A stretch of DNA of 63,040 bases, counting the filler, from Bigelowiella natans CCMP2755 (lineage: Eukaryota > Protista > Cercozoa), in the NCBI GenBank assembly GCA_000320545.1. It is 9 parts of 9 records of this genome, joined end to end, with 100 filler letters (N's around TTAATTAATTAA, not from the genome) between each part and the next. Parts side by side here need not be neighbours in the genome. Positions count along the whole stretch, not along the records: positions 10,386 to 18,724 come from ADNK01003604.1; 8 more parts are not named here. One strand, written 5' to 3'. Every line of letters begins with the position of its first letter. Within the stretch, counting starts at the first letter, position 1. The position numbers and the translations under genes were made by a program. Positions 527-56,993 of this stretch are shown one piece after another. Below the pieces are notes generated by a model, which was not told where the DNA came from, ran no database searches, and worked only from the letters and a program-made list of their open reading frames with translations.

Positions 527-662
527 CATGTATGAGACGGATGTAATGAACAATTAAAATTTTTCAATGGTCATCCTAATGTAGCTGTGCAATGCAGCGG
601 CTACAGGGCTAATGTTGTGTCTGTTGGTTTCTGCCACCACGTGCTTCATGCATTTGAAAGCG
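527..662 (+). repeat. Dispersed repeat family, copy 1 (core GACGGATG...TTTTCAATGGTCATCCTAATGTAGCTGTGCAATGCAGCGGCTAC)
   Basis: Aligns by eye to the reverse complement of 33290-33425; the spurious translations AFKCMKHVVAETNRHNISPVAAALHSYIRMT and AFTCMKHIIAETNRFKISVVVAALHSYIRMT match. Confidence 0.85.
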
Positions 663-793
663 TCCTCAAGTGTCCGATGTTGTCGCGCGCTGCGCGCAAC
701 AGTTCTTGAATCCTTTTCAGCCTTTGTCAACCGGTTTGTCTCGTCGTTGCGATTCATGATTGCGCTCAATTGATTGCGCAATCTGATTTGTTG

Positions 794-2110
794 TCAACCA
801 TTTGTTGGACATTGCAGGAGATGATCCATGTCCTTCAGGATGCCAGATGCATCGCATGTGGCATCTGTCTCTGTGCATTGTCCACGAGAAAACATGAATT
901 TTCCAAGATTGCCGACACCACAGATGGCGCGCATCCATGATGTAGCGACACTTGGAAGTTTTAGTTTGATGCCGGTGATCGAAGATGACGGAAGGAATCC
1001 AAGATTCTTGAGATGCACAGCTCTCAGTGAATCATTGGACCATTCCTTCTCGAATTCGGCGAAAGCACAGGATTTCATCACTTTGTGATGTTTTTTTAGA
1101 TCTTTTTTCAGCGCCTCTGTTGTCGTCAAAACAGTGGGAAGTTCGTCACCTAACAAGTCGTCGTTGATCGATTTCAGCCGGCGAAACAGAGATGCTTCAT
1201 TGTTCCACGTGGCTTGTGGACACATCAGTCCACGATGTGCCATCTGGCATTTTTCGATTTTCAATGATGAAGCCGCAACTGCTCCAATCATTCATTCCCT
1301 CATGCATTTCAGGACCGCTGCCTGCATCGATCCATGCATTGGTGCGCAACCACGATTTGGCACACTGCACTTTTGTCTGGTGTCGGGGTGGCAACGTGCC
1401 AGTGGGGACGTGGGGAACGTCGTTGGAGACAGATCCAGGCAATCCCAACACTCGTTTCAGGGTTTGGGATTCCATGGAATCCATCTGTTTCATTCGCATG
1501 TTTCTTCGCGATCTCCATGTTGGAGCTGCGCATCTGCTGGATGCAATGAACCATGATTTGTGAAATTTCAGTCTGACATTTGGCGGCACAAGGTGTCTGG
1601 AACAACACAACCTCAATGGAAACCTTCGCTTTTTTTGCAATCTCAGGTGAGAAGCAAGAGCATGTTTTTCGAAGGTCAGTTTGTTGTCGAAGACCAGTCC
1701 GAGACATCTGCCGCTGTCGACCCTTTTCATTTTGCCTTGGAGATTCAGAGAAATGTTCCAAGAAGTTTGGTGCAGGTAGGCTTTGTTTCTTTCATCCATG
1801 ATGAGGCATCCACTTTTGTCACCATTGAATCGCATCCGCCATTTCATGCACCAGGCCGTCATTTGGTTCAGGTCGGCCTGGACATCGTCTTGCATTTTCC
1901 CCCATCGCTTTGGCGAAAATGATTTGTGAGGGGTGACGTCGTCACAGTGCATTTGGAAATCTGCATTGTGAATTTGTTCACAAATGTCGCAATGAGACAT
2001 GAACAGGAAGCAGCTGAGCGATGATCCTTCTGGGACCCCGCTCTCCGTTCTCCCGTTCAGAGGGGTGTTGAGTTCTTTGTTGGCCTTTGGGATGAGGCAA
2101 AAGATGGCCG
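794..2110 (-). mobile_element. Degenerate, 5'-truncated non-LTR (LINE) retrotransposon ORF2 fragment: reverse transcriptase plus C-terminal CCHC-like region
   Basis: ORF 1197..2201 has GVPEGSSLS (GVPQGS motif), MHCDD (YxDD position), QADLNQMTAWCMKWRMRFNGDKS, and CLGLVFDNKLTFEKH (YLG.xxD.KL.F..H). Frameshifted ORF 794..1291 ends in CDASGILKDMDHLLQCP, resembling the LINE C-terminal zinc knuckle. Confidence 0.9.
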
Positions 2111-2320
2111 CCTTGCGTGAGCCATCTCGGGTGTGTGCACACACGCGGGTGTGTGCGTACACGTACTTGTACGTGTACAGCCACATACAATTGTTCAACA
2201 ATGGCTAAAACAAACAAATACAATTTGAGCGCTGTACGTGGTCGCAGCTTTTGCATGCATGCATGTAGCATGCATGGCTTGTTGAGTGTTCATTGCTAGA
2301 TTGCACATTCATCTCGCACG

Positions 2321-3470: not shown

Positions 3471-3859
3471 AGAGAGAGAGAATGAGAGAGAGAGAGAGAA
3501 TGAGAAAGATGAGAATGAAAGAGAGAGGGAAAAGGAGAAAAGAGAGCCCACTTTCTAAGTATCGTCAAATATTGCCATAAAGAGCGCACTCGCTCGCGAT
3601 AGAATTGGAAACTGTAAGGGCTTGGATGCGAGGGACACGGTACCTCTTCGAACCTTGGAGCGCGCAAGAAGCTGTAATTTGTTCTCGCCTTTTCGAACTG
3701 GGTGGAGCAGTTGCTCTGGTGAAGGCCGTCATTCAATGCCCTGAGAAAGTCCTCGCGAACTGCTGTTGAGGGGGGCGAAAAAACATCACTCCTGGACAGG
3801 GAGGCGTTGGCCATGGCAACAATCGCGAGGGCGGCGAAGCAAGTGCCTAGAAAACCCAT
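2683..3859 (-). CDS. Putative secreted protein of unknown function, about 4 exons (approx. 3859-3551, 3395-3314, 3213-3093, 2921-2683)
   Basis: Signal-peptide-like start MGFLGTCFAALAIVAMANA. GT-AG introns join in frame: ...YLTILRK|RPSAEEWAVEAAI...RFLR|LMGDRRNASL...LNRE|YEEAVKLTRILRES... Confidence 0.65.
3401..3545. repeat. (GA)n intronic microsatellite, representative of dozens of (TA)n, (CA)n, (GA)n, (CAT)n and poly-C/G tracts
   Basis: Directly visible; most lie inside introns or next to the spacers. Confidence 0.95.
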
Positions 3860-5838
3860 TTGGTCGTCTTGCCTTCACACATGGAGCACCCTGCCCTCTC
3901 GCCCTCTCAAGGAGACATGCGAGGTGCGAGCACACCGTATTGCTTCGGGTTGTGAACTGAACCTCATTTAAAAAAAAAAAAAACAGTTCTTTTCGTGTTG
4001 TGCGACATGAATTTTCTCTTGTCGCACTGGGCAAAACAAAAGGGGCTCAACAATTCGGTGGATCGGGTTACGAGCTTCTGACAAACGCTCGATTTTTTCT
4101 TGGTGATTCAGTTGGTCGGGGACACGGATGCAAGGATGAATTCATGGATGATCCTTTCAACCGTTCCAATGAAACACTTCTTTCTTTTTTTCTTTCTTTT
4201 GTGGCAAACTTTGCACATGTGTGATGTTGCGTTCTCACGGCGTTGTCGTTGAACTCCTTCTGGTTTCACAGACCTCACCAAAGTCAGTTCGAGGCACTGC
4301 GTTTCGCACACTGCAAATGGTTTGTCATCTCATTGTTCATTGTTCATTGTTGGACGAGGAACGAGGACAGGGACGTGGACAAGGAAGTTGCGGTTGAAAA
4401 TTGTGCTTCGAGTTCGATGCTTCGATCGGAGGAAGTGAAGCGTGATGTGTGATCCGCATCGATGGACACCTGCTAGCCTGGAACACCACTGGTTGCCTGC
4501 TGGCCTGGCTTCACTCACCAGTGTGTCTCTGTTTCCAAGTTTGCACGTGCAGCTGGAAGTGAACTGCTCGTTTCAGCGGCTTTCTTGGAGGCAAAAAAGT
4601 TCAATTGATGAAGGCCGGACGAGCTGTGGAGTGCCAGCGCATCACAGGCAGCCACGCACACCTGGACATGACACGATCGTGTGTGTGATCAGCGCAGCTG
4701 GCTGGAGATGCACATCCACAATTGTGTTGACTTCCATGAGGTTGTCCGACTTGCCTGGCTCCACATCGCTAAATCGCCTGGATGCCTTGTCTGGATCGTG
4801 CAAAGGTGCGCGACACGAACGAAGTTCAAGATGTGCACGCGAGCGATGCGGTCTAGCGGTGCCAATGAGCGCGATTGGCAAGCTCATTTGATTGTGGCTG
4901 ACAGATTGCTAGAGCCAGCGTGGCCGCTGACCGAAATGCGTGAACTGTCATCACGTGTTGTGCGTCGATCCGTGAGGGGCCAGCCGCCGCACGTGACACG
5001 CACTGACATGCATGCTGCTAGCATGCAGCGCTAGTTGGTCAAATTCTGGCGTTCATTGGCACCACTGCTAGACTGGACCACTGGGCACAGAGCACCAGAG
5101 CTAGAGAGCATCACAATCATCTAGGCATGCACAGTGTGCTCTAGCGCTAGCAGACGTGCCAACGTGTCATGCACAATGAATGCTGGCAGAGTGCATCATT
5201 GTGCATTCTGGCATTGCTAGATTGTGCACAGACACATCTCAAGATCTGATGTGATCTAGTGATGTGCACGCAACAATCTCTAGATCTAGCAATTTCCATT
5301 GTTTGCGACGACTGCTCGTGCATGCCATCGCACACCAGTTGCTAGATTGGATTGGAGATCGATTGCATCGCAATCTAGCAATGTGTGATGAACATGGCTG
5401 TGCGATGCGATGCATTTCTCGATCATTGTGACTGTGCACACGCTCTAGCGCTAGCACGATTGCGGCAACGTCCGCTGACACGAACATGTCAGGGTGAGAG
5501 GATGTGTGCACATTGACATGTCTACTAGTCTAGATCGCATGGAACGATGAATCCACAGCAATCTTGAGATGAGTCATAGATCACACATCGCTAAATGCTC
5601 ATGCTCACTCTGTCAAGCACTTGAATGCATGCCCGTCAAGTTGAAATGAAGCACGCACGCAACAACGTGGAAAACACAACATCACAACTGGTTTTTGAGG
5701 CATATGCATTGCTCAAATGTTACCGACTGTACATTGAGTAGCAACTCATTACATATCATGGTTCTCTCATCAGAAATGCTCTGACACTGGAATTAATTGA
5801 CTGTTCTGTACATGGTGAATGCTCCGTGTTGGCTTGGC

Positions 5839-12511: not shown

Positions 12512-13361
12512 TGCATGGGTCTATTGTCTCTCCCTTCAGTCATCAACCCCATACAGAAAATCGTTCTTAATCATGTGTGTCTTTCGCTTGCTGCCTATGA
12601 TACAGGAAACAGCCTCTGGTCAGAACCGATGCAAAACGGAAACCTGACTCAGTGGAGATGAACTCAGGAGCTGCTGAGCTAGGGGCCGGGCCAAGAAGGA
12701 AGGAAATGAAGCGCGCTGATAACTCTGCTACTACTACGACGATGGGAAGAATTTTGGCTTCGTAATGCACAACACAACTGTTTCTGATTCATTTTCAAGA
12801 ATCCAAAGCTATCTTCAATCAACATGCCAAGTAAATGATGATGAGAATGTACTTGAAATTTGTAAAGTTCATGGGTGCATGGCTAGATGGGATGCACGCT
12901 CACTCAAACGCAGGAAACAACAAAGCATTGTCTAGCTAGGCGCTAACAGCTACATGCATGCAACTTGTGTTTTCAAACATGTTGGGAAAATGAAATTCTA
13001 AATTACCTGCACACGTTGATGGGTGTAATTTTGGAACAAATCATGAGAGTTTGTGTGGCACAACAACAAGTCGTCTCAGTGTTGGGCGTTCATTTCTTTC
13101 CGTTCGAGGCCGCTGAAATGCCAGAATTGAGAGCGCTGCCCGTCTAGCCGTGAGACAGATCTAGAGATGCTCACTCATTGTTGCTCTGGTGCAGACCGAT
13201 CTAGCGATGTCACAAATGACAAGACTACTTGCACATGGGGTTCGTGGTGCCATGTTCAGCTACTCATTCTGTTGGTTGCAGCTTCAAGTGCATGCGACAC
13301 GTTTCACGCATGCATTCATGATTTTTTATTGGATTGGTTGATTTCGCGATGAATCCTTAAT

Positions 13362-14842
13362 TCAAACTTCTTGGACAGAAAAACATTCACAATTTGTTAG
13401 AGCATCCCAAACCTCCCTGAACGACTGAACTGGAGGCACGTAAGCATAGTAGAGATACAGTAGAAGAGCGGCTATTACTGCCCACCCATCAACATCATCT
13501 TCGAAGTTGTATGCTTCATCATCCTCGATCCCTTCGCTATAAACCTCATCGTTCCCAATTTGTGTGACAATAGCAGCAAATAATGTGGGAACTATGAGAA
13601 ACCCAATAATTCCAATTAACACCATGAGCTTAGTGATTTTTTGCAATGCTGCCTCAAAATTTCTTCTATGACGAGCTCTGTTCTCCTCAGAACGACTTTT
13701 AGCGGTATATGATTCAAGGGGCTTGGGGGTTGGCTGCACATTTAGCGACTTAATAGAATTTTTTGCGCTCTTTGCTTCACGATGGCCTCTTACTTTCCTC
13801 TCGGCTGTATAAGATACACTGTTTTCTACCTCATTATTTGCATCCGCAGATGCTTTCATGTCAGACATCTCTTGTGCTTTCAACGACGTGTCAGTATGAC
13901 TTGTGCGCATAGGATTAATGTTGCCGCGGGACTGTGATCTGATATTACTGTTGCTTCGACTGGTACTATGTTTAGTTTTTGGGATTTTCGACATCACTTC
14001 ATAAAGAGCCCCTCTGAGTCTATACAGAGACCATTCGGAGAAAAATATTGCAAAAGCAAATGCGACAAATGCTGCTAAGAGCCGGAGTGAACTATATTGG
14101 ACATTGTTAGTGACCAATGTCCCGATCACCTAGTGTAACAAATATCACGTCAATTTCTGACAGAGGATGTCCCAAATATGATTTAACGACCGAGAGAACT
14201 CCAATAAATATCGAAATGCTTGCAATGGCAATGTAAAACGTTTTCATCTTCGTGGGAAGACGTTTTGTCAAGTTCACAGAGTTGTAACTTGCGTGTAGGA
14301 GAACCCAGGTCCAGTACAAAGCGGTGAGAATCGTAATCATCTATTTTGAATTGTAGGTCACCCGAATACACATGAACTTATGGCCAATCGTACTTACCAC
14401 CGAGATACTTCCAATAATCAACTGTGCCTGCCACCCAGCATATCCTGGTTCCCGGAGTATCTGTATAAACACCAAAATGTTATCATGATTGTAGAATTAT
14501 GGCGGATCATAATGTGAGATTTGGAGCAAAACTCTTACTATGAAGAACGTCATCGCGAACGGAATGTTAGCAGCAACCAAACTAAAGAAGCATTATTTTC
14601 ACTGTCTCAGATCTTCAGCACATCACAACTTGGATAATTACAGTTGGATATTGCGCTTCTGCTGGTTTTGAGTTGGACTTGCTAGCTCCGCCATCACATA
14701 AACCCCAATCATGGCGAGAACAATGACCTTCAAGACATCTGCGACAATTTTGAACAACAAAGAAAAAGCCAACTGAGCCACCGAGGTTGAATGTCCATCT
14801 TGCAGCCAAAACACCTGAGATGATCCATCCTTGGTCCACCAT
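13362..14842 (-). CDS. Seven-transmembrane (GPCR-like) protein, about 6 exons
   Basis: Spliced model MVDQGWIISDVLKVIVLAMIGVYVMA... gives seven hydrophobic segments with a long polar loop between TM5 (LLAAFVAFAFAIFF) and TM6 (LMVLIGIIGFLIVPTLF); TM7 is GWAVIAALLLYLYYAYV. Confidence 0.7.
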
Positions 14843-16774
14843 GGGTCCTCGTCCAATTTCGGGCTTGGGGGGAGGGGGGAGTCCAAGAAGCAGCACAAAC
14901 TGAGTTTCCGACCGGGGTTCAAACTTTTCGGTCATCCTGGGTTGAAAGAAAACCGGGTACTACCGGGCCTTGGATTTGGTGAGGACAATCAGTGGCAGTA
15001 CACAGTGCGCGACATGCACATTGCGCTGGTCTGTGCGTGTGTGCACCATGAATTATTACCTAAAAAACACTCGAATGCTTTTTCATCGCATGAAAATGAA
15101 TGAATTATTACCTAAAAAACCGTGGCAGCAGTCAGTATATGCTGCTGCTGCTGGTGGTGGTGGTGGTGGTGGTACTGCACGTTAGTTCTTCATTAATGGT
15201 ATTGTTCTTTTGGCATTATTATCTGCTGATCTAGTATGATGTTTTTGCTACTTCATTTGTTCTTTCTTTTTCTTTTCTTTTCTTCATCTGCATTGCCAAT
15301 CTTCTCTTCCATCCTTCTTATCCCCCCCCCTCCTCTTTGTATTTTTTAGTACTAAATTATTATGACGATGAGGATGAGACTGATGATGATGATGATGATA
15401 ACAGATTGCTCGTTGAGTATGAATTTCCTCCTTACTCGGTTAACGAGACTGGGCGAACAACCCAAGGAAGAAGAGAGGTAAGAGTACTATCTAATGATGA
15501 TGATGATGTTCATATCATAATCACAAAAAATCTGTAATTTGGAAGATTGGCCACGGAGAACTAACAGAAAAATCATTACGTCACACGATTTCCTACTACG
15601 ACGACGAAGATGATCGAAGATGTAATAACTGTGAGAAGGCAAGTGTTGTGCTCTGCGACATGGACGCAATTTCAGGCGATGTGCACAAAAACAAGTGCCA
15701 GTTGTGCCGATCATGTGTGAATGTGTGTGGGTTTTGTTTCAAAACCTGGATGTTTTCGCGTGAAGTCTCGCTAGCTCACTTGTTGGTTCGCCCATCGTCT
15801 TCAACGCAGGTCATTCTCTCAAGCTGCACTCGTGGAGCAACGCTCTTTTGCACTCAACGTCTTTTTTTGTTTGCGATTGTTTTTCTCTCTGTGTTTTTCG
15901 AGTGCACGCGTTGGTTGTCTTTTTGTTTGTCATTTTTGGTTCTTTGAGGAATTCCAACAATGCGTGTGTGCGAGTCAACGTGACCCAATCCTTTCAACCG
16001 CTTTTGTGGAACTGCTTCGTTTGTTCATTGACAAGCCATTGATGCACGTCGCACACTGTTGGACTGCTAGACTGGCACACATCGACTCGCACGGTGCCCG
16101 CGCAGCTGACTTTCGGCGTGACACCGTGTGTGCAGCACTGCTCTGGTGCCCGTGTGTGCAGCACTGCTCTGGTGCTAGACTGTCTAGCTGTGCACGTTGT
16201 TGTGCAACACAGCCAGACAGCACGTGTTGCATGCAGTTTCGTTGCACGTGCGTGGTGCCGTCTAGCCGTGCACTGCGTCCAACGACACACACGTGTGCAG
16301 ACAGGAAGAAACCAAGGCAACCTCAATTTGTGTTCACCGTTGTTGACTTGAACAACCCTGCATTCCTTCTGGCCTTCACAAGCATCGCATGAGCTAGTGC
16401 ACCAAAAAACAATCACATTGAAAGTCATGCCATCTGGCATGCGCGCATTCAGTTGTGCACTTGCTTTCGCCGGTTGTCTGAGAACGTGCACAGCAATTGC
16501 AACTTCTGATGCTCACTTTTGCTTGTTCTGATGTTGGGTAGTGATGTGCACATGCAAACTCCTAGATGCGACAATCTTGTCCATCATCTGCACGAGAAGC
16601 TGGGAAAAAGAGAACGTTGCCATTGGACAAACATGCGCTCACAATTTGCACATGAAATTTGCTCGCACGAGCTACATTGACAAGTTGGAGAAGTCAATGC
16701 AACACATGTGAGCATGAAAATTCTTTTGCATTGGAATTCGGCTCCTCATGCTCAAGAAAGTGAGTCGCTGCGAC

Positions 16775-16950
16775 TCAACTCTCGTCCTCCCTTTTTTTTT
16801 TTTTTTGGAGTTTCTTCTCTTTCCGAATGGCTGCTTTCTTCCGCCGTTGTTCTTCTCGCAGAATCTCCTTAGCCTTCCTCTTCTTTTTGCGTCTTTCATT
16901 TTTCTCAAGATCTTCCTGCAAAGTACACAACAAATATGAATGTAACCGTT

Positions 16951-16999
<49 letters not shown>

Positions 17000-17012
17000 A
17001 TGTGGTGTGCGC

Positions 17013-17053
<41 letters not shown>

Positions 17054-17784
17054 CAATTGCTTGTTTGTTTCAATTATTCAACGTTCTCGCTACCTTTAGA
17101 TGACAGTATAGAACACCCTCGCGGTTTTTAATATTTTCAATGTGCATTCTGACGAGCTCGAAGAACTGATGAAAAAAGAGGTAGGACGAAAATCAACAGA
17201 TGGCGCTTACCGGTGATGGTGGCAAACAAAAGTAATCGTTCCAAATAATGGAAATATGATGTTTTGGTTTGCAGTATTATTCGCGCTGGATCAGTTTTTG
17301 TGCGATTTGGATGGAACGATCATTCCAAAACACAAAGTCGTGATAAGAGCAGGATATTATTTACGATGTCGTTGCCTCAGAACATGATGATGCATCATTA
17401 CCCTCTGTTTCCCTTGCCCTTCATGAATTTTCCTTCCTAGCTTCTTGATCTAAAAATGCGTGTGTTAGTAGTAGCAGCAGCAGCAGTAGTGGTAGTGAAG
17501 AACACACGACCAAAACAATAAGCTCTATCTCTGACTCTCCCATGCGGAGGGAGATTGCCTCCTGCACATTCTATTCCCTTCCCTCCATCAACTTCCCCTT
17601 ACCACCTGCTCTGCGAGATCTTTCGGCTTGATCCTTCCAACAAGCTGGAGAATGAGGAAGAGAATGGGGATCGACCAACCACAACAGCAGCAGAAACAAC
17701 AACAACAACGCGCAAAGACATAAAAATGAAAATAGTATTTTGGTACACGGCGATGTCTAAATACGTACATTATATATATATAAA

Positions 17785-19994: not shown

Positions 19995-21335
19995 GAAAAA
20001 CTAGGAGCGGGAAGATAACCTCCCGCGTCCCTTGTTAACTAGTTGCGTATTGTTGCTTCTAGCCCAACTACTCAAGACACAAGCGTGCTTGAGGAAAGAA
20101 ATGATGATGAAATGAGAAGTCGAACAACGAAGAAGAAGGGAATACTAATACCACTACTACTAATAATAATTGAGACCACCAAGCAAGGAGGTGAGACTAG
20201 AGGAGGATACAAGGATTTATGTTTAATAAGCGCGAATGAATCATATAAATGGGCGTTAGCAGTCAAGTTGTTTATTTGGTTCTTCGTTATCGTCGTCGTG
20301 AAATATATCATACGATTACATAGATTCTTGTTCTTTCATCTTGAAAGAATATGTCTTTCCTCCCCCCCCCACCACCACCCCTTTCTCCTTTCTCTACAAA
20401 ATGAACGAAATTCCCACGAAATGCCAGCTCCAGCGTTATAGCCCGATAAGTTAAATTTTCCAATCTTCGGGTTTTTACGGAGCGACGTGTCGTATCCCTC
20501 AACGAAATGAAAGTTGTACATAGTCCAAACCAGCTCGTTTGAATGCGCCTACTGTTTTTTACAAGGCTGCGTTGTGCTGTCTTCTCTTCTGCTACCACTA
20601 CCAATGAAAAACAATGCATTTTTTGCGTCGATCGACCGAATGTCAGCCGGTAATAATCAGTCACGCATCGTCATTTTCAGAAATTATGAAGGTTGCATGC
20701 ATGCATGCATGCATGCATGATGAAAATACGTCATTGTGCGCGGCTGCTGTATTCATTCGTGTGGGTTGCTGCTGTAACAACACAGTTGCATCGCATGCGT
20801 GATCAAGCAGATGTAGTGCGCCATGTCTTATTTGCTAAATCGATCTAGACATCTAGACATGCTAGCGCGCACGCTGCTGGCACTACGTACTAGCTAGCTA
20901 GACTAGCTAGAGCGACGAGCATGCTGTAAACTCATCTACAATAGACATACGTATACATAATATGTACGTACATGTATCGTAACATATGTTATACATGCAA
21001 TACATACTAAGTCTGTGGTATCTCATTTGCTATGTGGTGCAATTTTAGAATTGCATTGCTAGCTAGCTAGATTAGCTGGATTAGCTAATTACTTGATTAA
21101 TGCTATCATTGATCGAACCAACCTCATATGGGAGCGCATACATACACAATGATGAAAAATGACCATTTTTACATGCACATATTGCACAGCATGCTAGTAT
21201 GGCGGGTGATGTGCCAAGCTCTAGAGCTCATTATTTGATGCGACTTCAACTCAGCCACACGGGCACGTGCGTAGGTCCTCACATCGCATGCTGCCCTATG
21301 TCACCCTCTTCCAGCTCGGCATTTGCTTCCAATTA

Positions 21336-22268
21336 TCAGCCTGGCGAGGCATTGTACCGTGAATTGAAAAGCGGCAGATTAGATTCGATTCGGTAGTTCT
21401 GCGCAATGCAAGCCTCTGCTACGAGAAGGAACATGATAGTAAATATGAGACAACGCTGCGCTCTTCCCTTGGGTAGGAGGGAGATAACAACTTTGTCTGA
21501 TACGCCCTGGTACAACATATCCCCTTCGAATGTCAACCCCTTGTATCTGGGGAAGGGGGGGGGGGGAGAAGGAGAACGAAGATAGAATTATAGGCAGTTG
21601 CTGTTGAAGATAACTAGCAAAGCCAACAATAAGGCTTTTTGATAAAGATATGTACATCGCATTATACGAATTTAGGTCCGGTGTGCACATAAATACACGA
21701 AGAAGTATGCAAGTAATCGAATAGGTAAAATTCACCATAATTTATATATATTAGACTAGTAATTCCGATAAAAACATTTATTTGTAATCAACCACCCCGC
21801 CCCCCCCCTCCCCTCCCCTCAAGTACTTTCTAGCCCTTCTGAGCATCCCGACGAGCGTATCCGATATGTCTTGATATGCTGTAAAGAGCTTGCCGAAATT
21901 GACCTAAGAGGGCCACCAATAATTGTAGATAGACCGTGTGAGAGGAATACGCAGTATAAAACGAAGATAAATGAAGAGAAAGAGACTGCACATATATGTG
22001 AAAACCATACACCCCGAGCCTTCCTGGGAAAATACGCATTTAGAGATGCAGAGGCGACGCAAGCGATAACAATCTCATAGGATATCCGAATATACACGCA
22101 CTTGGTGATGGCCTTGTGGACCCTTTGAGCCCTCCCTCTTTATCACCGTTAGCAAGATTCCTAGAAGCAGAGGAGGGAGACGATGACGATGACGACGACG
22201 AGCAGCAGCAGGGATGCAGCAATTAGAATCGATAACAAGCCAAAGGAAACGGCATTTCAAAACACACG

Positions 22269-25619: not shown

Positions 25620-26677
25620 GAGTGTATTTAAGAGCAGTCTCAGCACATGTACGTCCGCCAAGAATCCATACATATATCACCGTGTAACGCCGACGACGTT
25701 GATATTATCGTCGGCACGCACGTGTATTGTCATTTATTATCACAGTGCTAGAGAGGGCACGGTGTGTCACCCCATACTTTGCTAGCTTTAACTAGTTAGG
25801 CTTTAAATATAGTTTTGCTCCACGCTAGCATATATTATAGCTAGATAGCAAGTTGCACATAGAGCGAGCGCGAGCTGTGTATTTATTTTTAGCGAAAATG
25901 TAACTTTGCAAATAGGCTAGAAAGCTGCCTATACACGTCGGGTCTAGCGGATGTCACGTTATCGCACTCGTGCTTGTGTAGCTAGCCAGCATAATAAGCA
26001 CGTACGTCTATCTAGCTATGCTAGCTAGCTAGCTAATTGTAGCGCATTGATGTTCGAATACCGCAAGAGATAAGCATACTGCTGTTATGCAATATTGCAT
26101 AGATCCAGCAGGCTACTAAGCAGCAGAATCAATGAGCTGCGGTATAGCGAGTAGTTGCGCGAGCGCTAGAACGCACTAGGTATCATTAGCACACGTACAT
26201 GTCTGCCACTTAGCAGCGCTGACGCAAACTCTAGAGCTGTTACAGCCTGGATGGGGTTGTGCGCCGTCTTAATGCCCTGTCTCAAGGGCGTGGATGGCCC
26301 GCGATTGACGACACGCACACTCTCTGCATCATGGGCGCGCAACAGGCCTTTAACTTTGCAAAGCTGTCGTTTCATCATTTGAACGATGTTATAATGCAAT
26401 ATCTGCATCAATCAGATTTTGCAATCCATGATTCGCATTGCGGTGCAAGGTCCTATAATTCACTCGCAGTCTCGATACGGCCAGTGAAATCTCATCGTGT
26501 TGTTTCAACTTCCATCCCGATCCATCGTAATAGCTCTTTCTTTTTGCTGAAGATGCTTTTTCCCAACCCCTCCCTCCCGTAGCCTCCCGCCCCCTTCTCC
26601 TCCTCTGTGCCCGTCGTAGAAAAATAAACGAATCACAAGAACACGCACATCCACCCGTTTTCGTATTTCCACACTGC

Positions 26678-32503: not shown

Positions 32504-33289
32504 AATTTTAACCTCCTCTTCATATCGTGCCTATTTCCAATCAACCTCTCGTAAAGCTGTGATAATTGTACAGAAAGCGCGAGAGTGCAGTAGCAAAACG
32601 AATAGTCTTAAGAAATGAGAAGGAATTAATAGTACGCGTCCACCCAAGATCATTCTAATGATGCTCTTGTGGTATATCAGTATCTCAAGCGTAATATTGC
32701 ATTGCACGCACGCACAGCCGGCAAGGTGAAGAAGATTAGATACATAATAAATGTATCTTGTATTATACACATCGAGACTACCAGCAGAGCATGTACGTGA
32801 TTCGCACATTCTTGACTCATTGCGCAATAATTTATCTGGTCATTATCTGCGGGCTACGTCTAAATTTGTGACGTGAATGCCGCTAGCTATGTCCGCGAGC
32901 AGCGCATTGCAACCTGCTGAACGTGCAGGTCAATATATCAGCGCACTCGCTCTGGGACTGGGGAATTGAAGTATTGAAGTCTTTGTGCTTTTTCCATCGC
33001 AAACGCGGCAGTTCCGTTTGGCACATCATATGCTTGTGCACGTATGCATCATTTGAAAAAATGGCTGTCAAGGCAATCATGCTGCGCCATCTAGCTATAT
33101 ACACGAGTGCAGCGACAATTGAAAGAATGTAATCATTTCATCACACCCGCTAGCCCGTCTCACATCGCATGCACGCACAGTATAACAGCTTAAGTTCTAC
33201 CAGCAATGCTAGAACAGGCCGCACATTTTCCCGCGCAAGCACGCAGGCATTTCGAACAAATTCAAGCAAAACGTACGCAATCACGAAGC

Positions 33290-33425
33290 AACATGCATTT
33301 ACTTGCATGAAACACATCATAGCGGAGACCAACAGATTCAAAATTAGCGTTGTAGTCGCTGCATTGCACAGCTACATAAGGATGACTACTGAATAAGTTT
33401 AATTGATTGATTGCATCCGTCTTAC
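33290..33425 (-). repeat. Dispersed repeat family, copy 3
   Basis: Reverse complement reads gacggatgcaatc...gtcatccttatgtagctgtgcaatgcagcgactacaacgctaat...tctgttggtctccgc. Confidence 0.85.
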
Positions 33426-33704
33426 ACAATAACCTAGACAATAGCTGGGAGATACACCGGCTAATATGTTATGTATCATATCGATAATCATCGTCAGCTG
33501 CTGACGGCGTCGATCGTTACTGCGAGCTAGACTGATAGGGGGCTGAATTGCATTGCTGTTTGCGTGTTGGGAGATACAATTCGCTCACATCGATGTGACC
33601 TCTTGCCGATGTGAGTAAGGCAGAGCTTTAATCAACTTCGTATTCGTACATGATTTGAATTAACCTGTAGTAGAGCAGTCGTATTCAGAATATAAACGGG
33701 AAAG

Positions 33705-39168: not shown

Positions 39169-39788
39169 TAGGTACCCCATCGTTCTAATCACTGGTTTCT
39201 TAGATCTATTGGTGCTGCTATCCATGTTGCATCGGATTTGAAGTTGCGTGCATTTTAATGTTACTAATGAATTAAGAGGATAAAAGAATGTCCATCAACA
39301 ATAAGAATATACACATTTTTGCGTAAGCACACATGTGGATTCATCAACAATTCATCGCGACGTTATAACGTACATCCATCTCGACTTTCCGGAAACGCAA
39401 AAATAAACCAGCATAGCACGTAGTGTGTTCCATGTCTAGATGTGTCGGCAAGATGGCTTATTGCGCGTGCATCGCACTACGTGTGGCTGGCTGCTATGCG
39501 CAGTGCGACGTACGGCGACTATGAACGCCCTTTGCCTATCTAGCTGTGTGTACGTGCTAGCGTGATGACAGCATATGTGCGCACGTAGCTAGGTAGACTG
39601 CGATATAGCGATAAATATGCCTAAGCTTCAAAAGTATAACATAGATATGATGTAGGTGAACTCAATCATCGTTTATCTCTTACGACATCTGCATATGCGG
39701 GCTTACTACGAATAGAAAATCGCCTCTTTTTAAGAGTTACCAAGACATTATATCTATATATTTCCACGCGAAATGTAACCAGCTAGTG

Positions 39789-40745
39789 CTAGCCATAAGA
39801 TGGTCTCGTTAGAGATAATGAACAGTGTCGGCGTAGACCACCATTATTTCCTCCCTTTTCCTCTGTGTCATTATTGCCTAGGATTCCAGAGACATTCTCA
39901 TGTCGATACTTCATGTTTTCATCAACACGCAGCTTGCTAGGGTGATCCTGCTGAGGAGCTCGCAGGTCTAAAATTCTGATAACAAATTGATATGGTATTA
40001 ACTGATCTTAGGTGAAGGGAGGCTAATCGTATGCACAACCTGTTGAGTACAATAGCGTCTTGGACAATTCCAAACGCAATGAGTATTATCATATGCCAGA
40101 AGTACATGGACCCGCAGGCTACAATCCATGCGCAAGACCAGTAAATGTGAAGCCAAAGGAATATTGCCAGATAACTGATTTTTGGAGATAACGAATACGT
40201 AAGGATGAAGACTGTCGCAGCTCATTTTTAACGGCAATGAACTACCTGTAGAGATAGAACCGCGAGAGTTCTGGAACTTCTCTTATCGTGTTATTTCTAA
40301 TTTCGCGCCAAAAGTAGTAGTAAACCTATAGATATGAAATCCAACTTTATATTTCGAACGTGAGTACGATGCTTTGGGTATCACCATAATGAATACGCTG
40401 ATGACAAAGAGGCTGACGATTGAAGGAGTAGCGAGAGATTTGGTGACGTATTCCGAACAGGTTTCCTAGTCATCGACGAAGTATTCAATTTTATTGGACT
40501 TCAGATTGTAAGAAAATATATCTGGATATTACCGGCTTCCAGTAAAGATAGCATGAGTGCCTGGAAACACGAGAAACCTTCACCACCATCGACGGGATCC
40601 ATATGATCTGTTGTGAAGCAATACGTCAAAAGATTTTCCCTTCTCCCAGCCATCATTAACATAGCACCAAACCGACCGCTAGGGCTAGATCCACTGTGGC
40701 CTTTTGCAGCACCAGCCCCTCGGTTTGACAGGACACTCGGAGCAT
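39789..40745 (-). CDS. Small multi-pass membrane protein of unknown function, about 6 short exons
   Basis: In-frame GT-AG joins: MLRVSCQTEG...DLALA|IIWIPSMVVK...YWKP|ETCSEY...SLFVISVFIM|VYYYFWREIR...YLYS|YLAIFLWLHIYWSCAWIVACG...|ILDLRAP...*. Confidence 0.7.
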
Positions 40746-42575: not shown

Positions 42576-42924
42576 ATCACGAACACTTGTCGGTTCCACT
42601 GGGATCGACGTATGAAGAAGGCTCGTCCGTGTGTGGAGCATAGGAAACTGTATGATGAAACATTGCTGCTGTAGCTTTTGATGCGACGCGTGTGTAGGTG
42701 TTACGCCGGAAGCTAACAATGGCAGGCGACCGGCCCTTCGACGATGCATCCGATGCAATGATGACTCCATTCATGTACAATAATATTTGGAATTCACGAT
42801 GGAGCAAAATCTATTAGAGCATTTCAGTGGCATGAGTTGAGCAATGCGGCTTCTGGGCACGCGAATGAATGTTAATTGGTGCTGCAGCGACGCAACAATA
42901 ACGCGATGGCATCGACACTTTATT

Positions 42925-43010
42925 TACATGGGACGGGTGTAAAAATATGCATTCGAAATTTTGAATCGTCATCCTAATGCAGCTGTGCAAAGTTGCGGCT
43001 ACAGCGTTTT
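42925..43010 (+). repeat. Dispersed repeat family, copy 4
   Basis: catgggacgggtgtaa...gaatcgtcatcctaatgcagctgtgcaaagttgcggctacagcg. Confidence 0.75.
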
Positions 43011-43717
43011 GCTAGCAGCTTTGTTTTGTGTTGACAAAATGCATGCGTATAGCTTCATTATTCATTATTGATGACGCTCATGTACTTCACTATTAGCTAG
43101 TTAGTTTTCTAAAGTTAATCATAGCATGTTGTGATAACGGTCAAGCGGTGCCAGTCGTAGCATGGTTAGATATGCGCGTAGTCTAGTAGTAGTAGATGCT
43201 AGGATGGTAGACTCACAAGCGCATATCTACGGATTCGACGCTCGGGACATGCGCACGTAACTGCACGCAATATGCTAGCATGGCTCATCTAGCATAGCCA
43301 TGTCCGATCCATGGCCTGCCTAGCGGCGCTACATACACACGTAAGCATGATGTATATCCAGGTGTGCCTTGCTGCTTGTATGCTACGACTCTGAACGTGT
43401 AGGCGGCGGCGCTTACAATAAGCCACCAAGCTAGCAAGCTTAGCTTATTAGTCACAGTTGCATGCAGCATTCAATAATGCACTGTTTCGGATATGCGCGC
43501 AGCTGATTCTGATTATTCGAAGTTTTTTCAATTAACCCTTATATATGCAGCCATGCATATGCATCTTTCATTGTTGCAGTAGAACGCTAATTTATTGTCT
43601 TCCCCTCTTGCTTGTGAGGAAAGTGAGTGGCCTAAATAGTCAAAAGATGTTCAACGTTACTTTGCAGATTCACTCCAACATCTGGCGGTGCACGTCGGAA
43701 TTCGTTGAGGCATCAAT

Positions 43718-54772: not shown

Positions 54773-56131
54773 ATGAAGAGACGAGGACCACAGTTACCCT
54801 CGTCACAGCTATCCTTCCGTGATGTCGTCAGGCGCGGTAAAATTGCAGAACCTAGAAAGAAAAACGAGGGTAAAGATGATACGATTAGGCTACGCAAGGT
54901 GGAACCCCTCCAACAGCTGGGATTTTTCCGGCGCATAACCACGGACATGGTTGTCACGGCGGTGGAAAATGTGCTGCAGCCAGTACTACATGACTCCCAG
55001 AATATCGCCAAGATAGTAGGATTATACGTGGATCTTACAATTTATGACGCGTTTGAACTCATCGAATGGTTGATTGGACTCCGAGAGCGCCGGATTAGAT
55101 ATAAGAGATGTAGGATAACACACGAATACGAAGTCGTTATGCAAAACACACTGCGGATAGGAGGAGGAGGAGGAGGAGGAGGAGGAGGAGGACTAGTTTA
55201 TTCAGTCGCCGAGGAGAAGGGAGGAATCAAGGAAAGCAAAACAGTTGATAAAATGTTCATAACCTTGAAGAGGGAACTAGAATCCGCTAAATTGGCAGGA
55301 GATGATTTACAAAGAGACGAGGAAAGGAGACTAGGGCTGGTCTTGCCGATTCTATTTAAAATTACGCAAATTACCAAAAATATACGAATAAAGAGAGGAA
55401 GGGCAGAGCAGGGACCCATCTCACGAATCCCCCCCGGCATTCGTCTATTGAAGAACCTCTCAGTCCTCTCTCTGAAAGACACTGCAATTCAGGAAATCCC
55501 GAACGAAATCGGAGAACTCCGCCAGCTGAAGAAATTAGCTGTCGATGGTGGGAAGCTGCAGTGTGTCCCGCGAGAGATTGCTTTTCTAAAGGAGTCTCTA
55601 ACGCAGCTCTCATTCAGTCGCAACTCCTTCCAAGGAATTCCCCACACGTTAAGGGCTCTCAAGAACTTAAAAGAGCTCTCCATGCGAAAGAATAGGGTTC
55701 GTGAAATCCCCCCATGGATTTGGGAGGACCTAGAAGAGCTCGAGGGCTTAGACGTCTCAAATTGCCTCATTGATGAGCTCCCTGCCTCCCTTTCCAGGCT
55801 GAAATGGCTCAGGGTGATCAACGCGAGCAACAATCTTATTTACAAGATCCCAGAGAGTCTAGCCGACTCGAACTTAAAGTATTTAAATCTCATGAATTGC
55901 AAGATCGACAGATTCTCTGTGCCTGAGAAGGTCGTCCGTGCTGCACAGGCATCCGTTGATGCGGGTTTTGTGGTGAAGAATGTCCCTCCCAAAGGAAGAA
56001 TGAATCTGTACCTTTACGGAAATGCCGGGTTCTATCCGCTCCTGAGGTTGTTTGGATCGTGTGTCGATGGCACTATAGTACAGATCCATTCTGCATTGAA
56101 CCACCAGGCAAGAGGTGCATCTGCATTCTAA
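54773..56131 (+). CDS. Leucine-rich repeat protein, intronless, 452 aa
   Basis: Repeated LxxLxxLxLxxNxLxxIP units (LKNLSVLSLKDTAIQEIP, LKNLKELSMRKNRVREIP, LRVINASNNLIYKIP). Confidence 0.9.
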   Translation: MKRRGPQLPSSQLSFRDVVRRGKIAEPRKKNEGKDDTIRLRKVEPLQQLGFFRRITTDMVVTAVENVLQPVLHDSQNIAKIVGLYVDLTIYDAFELIEWLIGLRERRIRYKRCRITHEYEVVMQNTLRIGGGGGGGGGGGLVYSVAEEKGGIKESKTVDKMFITLKRELESAKLAGDDLQRDEERRLGLVLPILFKITQITKNIRIKRGRAEQGPISRIPPGIRLLKNLSVLSLKDTAIQEIPNEIGELRQLKKLAVDGGKLQCVPREIAFLKESLTQLSFSRNSFQGIPHTLRALKNLKELSMRKNRVREIPPWIWEDLEELEGLDVSNCLIDELPASLSRLKWLRVINASNNLIYKIPESLADSNLKYLNLMNCKIDRFSVPEKVVRAAQASVDAGFVVKNVPPKGRMNLYLYGNAGFYPLLRLFGSCVDGTIVQIHSALNHQARGASAF

Positions 56132-56204
56132 AAGTGGCCACAACGAGTGTGTGCAGCGGCGTTACGCGGCGTTGACGAATCGATAATGCCGGTTTTATAT
56201 ACAG

Positions 56205-56285
56205 GGATGTGCCATGAGACGGATGGCAACGAAATAAGTTATTACATTTTTCAATTGTTATCCTAATTATAATTTAGCTAAGCAG
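56205..56285 (+). repeat. Dispersed repeat family, degenerate copy 5
   Basis: catgagacggatggcaacg...catttttcaattgttatcctaat. Confidence 0.6.
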
Positions 56286-56993
56286 TGATGTGTTATGTGT
56301 GTCTAAACGTAATATGAAGCACTGTGCAACGAATAGGGCGCGTACACGCGCTGTCTAGCTAGCTAGCTGTGGCGAATGCCAGTCGCACGCGGCATGATTT
56401 GCACGCTCGCGCAGAACTGTTTGCATGAGATCCATCTAGTCCATGCCAATTGCTCACGTCATCATCACGTCCGATGGCACTAGGTGCATGTGAGCATTGT
56501 TGCATTAATTGTTGGAATGAATGGAACGAAATGCGTTGCTTGTGCGATGGCCTCTATCTAGGGCCTGGCCATGCATGATGATTCCTTGCATCTTTAAGGC
56601 ATGCACACATCTGGACAATCACGGCGTACATTATGAAATGGAACACACGTTCTTGCATGAACCTTGACCGTCTAAGCGGTGTCTCCAACGTTGTATGCTC
56701 GTACGATGGCTATGCTGAGAAGGGAGCGAACCGTTTTCCCCCCTCTCCACACTACTTCTCCTATTATACGTCAAATCAAAAGTCGTCAAAGTTATCATCG
56801 AGCTGGGTTGTCCTCAGCTCTGAACATTGAGCGAGAAACTTATGCAAACATCCAATGGCGGTGCATGTAGTATTAACTGACACAGTTTACACACAGCGCA
56901 GGTTCAAAAACCACTATCGATGCTGTTGCTGCTGGACTTTGTCCGCGACTCAAAACAATTATTCACAGGTGCTCCACATCCATTCTACCAGAC

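Follow-up and report, generated by a model that had tools for sequence, protein, structure and literature searches.

Why should 1.14 kb of nuclear DNA lying between host genes of Bigelowiella natans CCMP2755 be nearly devoid of the dinucleotide TpA, and why should the few TpA that it keeps fall mostly within a single tetranucleotide? The segment in question, which we call island 3 (15631-16770), belongs to a window of 63,040 nucleotides, the whole stretch of DNA that was analysed, composed of nine parts of nine records of assembly GCA_000320545.1 joined end to end. The first-pass annotation had counted about nine TpA in this segment, seven in CTAG, one in GTAG, and one in CTAC, and exactly these nine are present (Table 1), relative to the 61 that the background rate of the window predicts (Poisson p 1e-16), which amounts to a loss of 85-90% of expectation. 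CTAG accounts for 7/9 of the remaining TpA, as compared with 6% in the background (p 9e-8) and 54/339 in six hand-picked, TpA-intact, CTAG-rich intergenic controls (p 1e-4). With TpA at a Rho of 0.12, both CpA (1.83) and TpG (1.69) are raised. CpG methylation decay was rejected as the source of these two dinucleotides, CpG being barely depleted in the island (0.85 vs 0.95 in the background).

An objective scan of the window returned three strong TpA-poor segments, at 611-2157, 3676-5522, and 15627-16869 (log-likelihood ratios of 56, 72, and 50, respectively), which correspond to islands 1, 2, and 3; the next-best segment scored 12. Outside the islands, the poorest of 489 sliding windows still held ~24 TpA. 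Segments such as 13027-13225 and 56344-56505, in which only CTAG survivors are found, were left uncounted because the scan for them ignored CTAG. The former is a small TpA-poor patch between convergent gene ends that keeps only three CTAG, and another such patch (14700-14957) lies within spliced exons of a minus-strand gene. Contigs of runs X1, which may be the window's own source, and X10 cross 15290-16900 with zero and two differing letters, respectively, both differences to the left of island 3; thus the sequence of the island is real, and an assembly artefact is ruled out by the matching contigs of other runs. The contigs of 4 of the 24 listed runs carry no alternative letters within island 3, where nine sites remain and where contigs would drop rare variants. 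The two copies of a 26-bp tandem duplication inside the island are identical, which suggests that this duplication is younger than the TpA loss.

Table 1. Coordinates in the window of island 3, its neighbours, and the two comparator islands.
Feature	Position	Strand	Evidence or remark
Comparator island 1, decayed LINE ORF2 with an internal deletion	612..2157	-	directional TA to TG/CA loss
Comparator island 2, TpA-stripped	3676..5522	.	19/23 survivors are CTAG
Exon (RNase PH domain) of the duplicated host PNPase fragment, with its TpA kept	15405..15477	+	protein match
GT..AG intron of PNPase fragment	15478..15545	+	joint in contigs of runs X15, X17
Second PNPase exon piece	15546..15641	+	homology ends at 15641, the left junction of island 3
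TpA-stripped body of island 3, without recognisable coding product or RNA family	15642..16774	.	9 TpA
CTAG TpA of island 3	T at 15772, 16068, 16176, 16185, 16263, 16395, 16563
Non-CTAG TpA of island 3	T at 16539 (GTAG), 16673 (CTAC)
Span of seven CTAG survivors plus GTAG at 16539	15771..16565	.	TpA listing
13-mer common to island 2 (4151)	15988..16000	+	a 42-base piece of another contig also aligns from this point
CTAG-containing 13-mer common to island 2 (5064) and flank of intact LINE L001	16063..16075	+
Perfect 26-bp tandem duplication in island 3	16124..16175	+
13-mer common to island 2 (5257)	16539..16551	+
Likely last exon of neighbouring host gene, Lys/Arg/Glu-rich, stop TGA	16775..16917	-

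A process with this signature is described in the main text of a recent preprint (Mettrop et al., bioRxiv 10.64898/2026.01.13.699255), which reports TpA to TpG/CpA hypermutation of integrated viral sequences in B. natans. In mutation-accumulation lines, two viral inserts acquired 231 de novo mutations, of which 230 were A to G or T to C, all of them at TpA; the same text describes 124 TpA-poor clusters, an enrichment of LINE-type (reverse-transcriptase) and DDE domains among TpA-poor genes, and a larger viral target that is single-copy. Island 3 (Rho TpA 0.124; Rho CpA+TpG 1.753) passes the window thresholds given there (Rho TpA <=0.43; Rho CpA+TpG >=1.52), as does the fixed window 16001-17000. 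It falls short of the cluster rule, which asks for three or more 1-kb windows in succession, only one fixed window passing, although this is a rule of listing and not of mechanism. The two systems are alike in lineage, in the conversion of TpA to TpG/CpA on both strands, in signature, in that single-copy targets are allowed, and in the presence of LINE-type genes among the TpA-poor ones. They differ in that the active targets of the preprint are viral inserts of 186 kb and 25 kb with 3.3% and 9.2% TpA, whereas island 3 is 1.1 kb long, near saturation, and located between host genes, with no viral origin found for it in database searches. Taking these points together with the evidence given below, we consider it likely that island 3 is a near-saturated target of the hypermutation reported in B. 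natans.

The direction of change is observed in island 1 alone, and would be the same in island 3. Island 1 retains five TpA, none of them in CTAG, and its LINE relatives are Bigna1 gene models. When compared with the intact relative P0001, 11 of the 12 tyrosines inside the island have become Cys or His, one is Asn, and none is kept; the one P0001 tyrosine outside the island is kept. We also compared the island with the DNA of L001 (65% identical), an intact metagenomic LINE and the one confirmed locus among 511 candidate stretches. None of 37 TpA survive (11 are TG and 11 are CA), other dinucleotides of L001 being kept at 29-57%, and in the last ~80 bp of the element, beyond the island's edge, 5/5 TpA survive. 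The loss of all 37 L001 TpA with equal yields of TG and CA, and the intact end, show directly, as read from the aligned sequences, that TpA loss in this island was acquired and directional, as well as strand-symmetric and bounded inside the element.

Several further features of this LINE family were recorded. Owing to an internal deletion in the island-1 copy, two stretches of the RT domain meet in frame at 2045-2046. Short 3' ends of the family, scattered through the window, have kept their TpA (531-611, with copies at 2315-2440, 33286-33428, 42925-43009, and 56214-56267), and short repeats seem to escape TpA loss. L001 itself is TpA-poor over its 3' 900 bases (3900-4800; 12 TpA) and normal in its 5' part, reflecting either (i) survival through past editing, or (ii) the blending of many mutated 3' copies during assembly. 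The relatives P0007 and P0039 are labelled Prorocentrum lima in EukProt, indicating contamination or a shared element, and a search of viral contigs for the island-1 LINE found none.

For island 3, the case is made from composition. The sum of TA, CA, and TG is 0.227, relative to 0.23-0.28 in TpA-intact intergenic controls. Converting six intergenic controls in silico raised their trinucleotide correlation with the island from 0.40 to 0.83, and converting coding controls raised it from 0.44 to 0.70; the composition of the island is what conversion would make of the intergenic DNA of this genome that is rich in CTAG and poor in CC/GG. Within the window we found neither an ancestor nor a copy with TpA intact, the best hits being no better than nulls (a 41-bp match at 25821, the best when reversion is allowed for, scored 44.9 bits relative to a null maximum of 48.8), and we thus infer from composition that the loss was acquired here as well. 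Stretches of the window that are TpA-intact and rich in CTAG, GCTAGC, and alternating purine-pyrimidine lie at 20690-21370, 25640-26300, 42900-43600, 39500-40100, 32600-33450, and 56130-56650, some of them directly downstream of genes.

Searches for the identity of island 3 returned no convincing match in Pfam, no match and no structured RNA in Rfam, no match among phage and plasmid DNA, and only Atlas matches below 0.9 with low recognition. Protein relatives of two ORFs, among them that at 15997-16512 (minus strand), were sought and none was found beyond the PNPase part. When 46 fetched or translated proteins were compared with islands 2 and 3 by tblastn, there was no match at E 0.05. On the empty Pfam and relatives searches a coding origin was rejected; a codon model had too little power for a verdict, its control reaching only +3.4. 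Membership in the LINE family of island 1 was likewise rejected, there being no ORF1 or EN/RT ORF2 homology by tblastn. Helitrons carry a 3' hairpin followed by CTRR within about 12 bases, and such an origin was rejected because the hairpin at 16761-16777 is not followed by CTRR on either side. This hairpin is a perfect 8-bp inverted repeat that takes in the neighbouring gene's stop codon.

As for copy number, a question raised when the island was first described, the depth of contigs across the locus, relative to the flank, is 1.09 and 1.14, near the value of 1.19 expected if only the PNPase piece were doubled and far from 1.8, although contig depth is not equal to copy number and is a weak measure of it. 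Island 3 is covered by one contig, and pieces of other contigs that fit it extend over only ~40 bases among the matches listed. The island looks single-copy. Its simplest reading would be that of an old decayed relic, remotely akin to island 2.

The two edges of the island differ in character. The left edge is sharp, as had been claimed, with TGTAATAACT at 15621-15630 and a best change point at 15626 (range 15623-15663). It coincides with the end of homology to a fragment duplicated from the host gene for PNPase (Table 1), so that it is most simply a junction to this fragment. The first exon of the fragment equals P0009/P0010 (Bigna1/140232) at every residue except splice-edge positions; in all, the fragment departs from intact Bigna1/140232 at two residues, Ala to Ser (15573-15575) and Tyr to Cys (TGT, 15621-15623). 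The latter site, 20 bases from the junction, may have taken one stray TA to TG hit, but this is a weak reading of a single event because two TpA nearer the junction stay intact. The PNPase piece retains 24 TpA over 15290-15645, and the remainder of the gene was not found within the window. Further to the left, a 20-bp direct repeat lies at 15049-15133, where DNA contigs break and depth is about double, a possible local collapse or other breakpoint of the PNPase duplication.

On the right, the island had been said to run up to the stop codon of the minus-strand gene at 16775. The TGA is indeed found at 16775-16777, but the edge of depletion is soft (16834-17074) and TpA loss may therefore extend into the last exon of the neighbouring gene. 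That exon contains one TpA relative to 6.5 expected from base counts, or relative to ~4.5 once coding bias is allowed for (p about 0.06).

Contigs of runs X15 and X17, guessed to be RNA, no run being recorded as such, and derived from two studies, carry the GT..AG joint of the PNPase fragment with the window's letters and reach 16310 and 16361, respectively, inside island 3; further contigs cover 16306-16780 and 16580-16780. They hint at transcription across the island, giving neither its strand nor its level, and those with the joint may be chimeric, derived in part from the transcript of the PNPase parent gene. Two X15 contigs meet at 16306-16310, one of them with a 29-letter loose end that matches nothing in the compared stretch.

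Repeat-induced point mutation (RIP) of fungi wrecks transposons and can leak into their flanks. Like the process considered here, it is a locus-targeted transition hypermutation at one dinucleotide, and the comparison is drawn in the main text of the preprint (10.64898/2026.01.13.699255). However, fungal RIP changes C to T and so makes TpA, whereas the process at island 3 removes it, and RIP of the fungal type was rejected on this opposite direction (CpA and TpG up, TpA down). Fungal RIP also needs paired repeats, while island 3 looks single-copy; a RIP-type long-repeat target was rejected on the single contig at near-flank depth and the shortness of the listed matches. That the fresh, near-identical PNPase duplicate next door is almost untouched also argues against simple RIP-like pairing.

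We next consider the survivors. Pooled over the three islands, TpA survived at 1/138 sites that have no 5' C and no 3' G (about 0.7%) and at 8/74 sites with one such flank (about 11%; one vs none, p 0.001), and 25 CTAG survived relative to 13 expected from background; these counts are small, and the flank-class expectations derive from background composition and not from true ancestors. CCAG/CTGG, the products of CTAG, are raised (20.1 and 7.9 per kb vs 5.2 in controls), and their excess yields an estimated CTAG survival of ~0.56 (0.52 and 0.69), indicating that CTAG is slow to convert rather than immune. We infer relative rates of ~1 : 0.45 : 0.12 for sites with none, one, and both of the flanks. 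The absence of CTAG from island 1 fits the scarcity of CTAG in its ancestor, the density in L001 being only 1-2 per kb. In a product test of singly flanked sites, R was 0.77, between the two one-strand predictions; rules in which only a 5' C or only a 3' G blocks conversion on one strand were rejected, neither fitting islands 2b and 3. Singly flanked sites convert on both strands, so no one-strand rule stands out. The flank rule was not found in print in our literature searches: the main text of the preprint reports neither it nor the edge behaviour described above, and does not contain the words "CTAG", "context", or "trinucleotide" (10.64898/2026.01.13.699255). Passages of PMC12695648 do not mention Bigelowiella or TpA, and those of PMC13746701 do not mention TpA or hypermutation.

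An alternative account of the survivors keeps the same hypermutation but has CTAG shielded by a site-specific mark or bound protein, for example by methylation within CTAG. Protection of the whole site would agree with the roughly equal conversion of singly flanked sites on both strands, and the estimated CTAG survival of 0.56 exceeds the 0.36 predicted by a multiplicative flank model; moreover, CTAG and GCTAGC words are dense in the genome's intergenic DNA. A mark on the palindrome does not, however, predict the protection that singly flanked sites also enjoy, and about half of the CTAG appear to have been converted. We therefore regard such shielding as possible but unlikely. A more elaborate version seems to us less likely still: a eukaryotic DNA adenine editor would saturate non-viral kilobase patches flanked by active host genes, their borders defined to within tens of bases, and a mark or factor dedicated to CTAG would protect it, serving as a restriction-modification-like self signal that the CTAG-rich intergenic DNA of B. 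natans carries.

The chemistry is open to a similar alternative. Adenine deamination is favoured, although A to G and T to C are not separable by sequence. Editing of the ADAR, ADAT, TadA, or APOBEC type resembles the island process in its A to G outcome, preferred 5' T/U, and neighbour-dependent rates; TadA, for one, prefers a 5' T/U. It differs in that ADAR, ADAT, and TadA act on RNA and APOBEC on C in single-stranded DNA, whereas in the islands both strands of nuclear DNA carry the fixed change. A lesion on T, arising from thymine oxidation in TpA or from a T:G-prone polymerase during gap filling, would instead give T to C, and we hold this to be as doubtful as the shielding of CTAG by a mark. 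Thymine oxidation occurs on transposons in other protists, and TA to CA and TA to TG (11 and 11 in island 1) are one event seen from two strands. It speaks further for the T side that the ADAT2-like deaminase candidate in the preprint's main text derives from motif and predicted structure only, and against it that a 5' T/U preference, given there for ADAR, is typical of A-deaminases (10.64898/2026.01.13.699255).

The first-pass annotation had presented island 3 as a third independent, largely unrelated sequence with the same survivors as the other two, and had argued from this to a regional process rather than a property of one element. The survivors are not the same in all three: those in CTAG are confined to islands 2 and 3. 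No long homology among the islands rises above null (blastn; Smith-Waterman, 200 nulls). Three 13-mers, however, recur in islands 2 and 3 without mismatch, in the same order and on the same strand, a degree of sharing reached by 0-1 of 3000 Markov nulls, so that these two islands are not clearly independent and may be remote relatives. Part of the CTAG signal may accordingly be a CTAG richness inherited within one family, and the truly independent witness beside island 3 is island 1. An acquired, targeted process is supported by the LINE island and its intact relatives and by the mutation-accumulation results in the preprint's main text (10.64898/2026.01.13.699255), while the argument from three islands is weaker than stated. 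One of the shared words, containing CTAG and 13-14 bases long, recurs in the flank of L001 (4975-5162) and at 5063-5076 and 16063-16075 of the window; it forms a 9-bp hairpin in L001, and is possibly a cis-element or small repeat.

The annotation itself had recognised that its case would fall if island 3 and the others belonged to one intrinsically TpA-poor family. In its present form, this alternative makes island 3 a member, with island 2, of an intrinsically TpA-poor, CTAG-rich family for which no local mutation would be needed. The collinear 13-mers favour it, as do the few ~40-base pieces of other contigs that fit island 3 and the TpA-poor 3' 900 bases of intact L001. Long homology between the islands is nevertheless lacking, the sum of TA, CA, and TG is conserved as conversion predicts, an unrelated LINE island has lost TpA relative to intact relatives, and the process has been measured in the B. 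natans lineage, as the preprint's main text reports (10.64898/2026.01.13.699255). We judge this alternative improbable. Most improbable of all is that the CTAG sites are not survivors but arose anew when cytosines of CCAG/CTGG in methylated DNA were deaminated. Plentiful as CCAG/CTGG are in islands 2 and 3, the 11 CCAG/CTGG of island 1 are accompanied by no CTAG, whereas islands 2b and 3 hold 25 CTAG to 31 CCAG/CTGG (Fisher p 0.005), and CpG is barely depleted.

Returning to the preferred reading, that of TpA hypermutation, we propose the following sequence of events. Island 3 would once have had a normal TpA content, as an old decayed insertion or repeat relic. It would have been marked locally, and not through present-day pairing with a copy, and a locally recruited editor would have gone on converting TpA of both strands, leaving in the end only poor contexts. 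The editor would be an adenine-editing enzyme, producing inosine from A that is fixed as G at replication, and a 5' C and a 3' G would each slow the reaction, CTAG being slowest. The PNPase fragment would have come in afterwards, creating the sharp edge, and would have received a single stray hit.

Island 3 is a small, saturated, non-viral-looking instance of a process already described in a recent preprint, to which the present analysis adds the flank rule. A to G hypermutation of nuclear DNA as a genome defence was reported only in 2026, in that preprint's main text (10.64898/2026.01.13.699255). Island 3 suggests that small non-viral patches lying between host genes are among its targets, and that the ends of elements can be spared. 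Saturated patches such as this one record the full neighbour preference of the enzyme, and the survival gradient constitutes a testable fingerprint for the mutator, usable for screening candidate deaminases in vitro.
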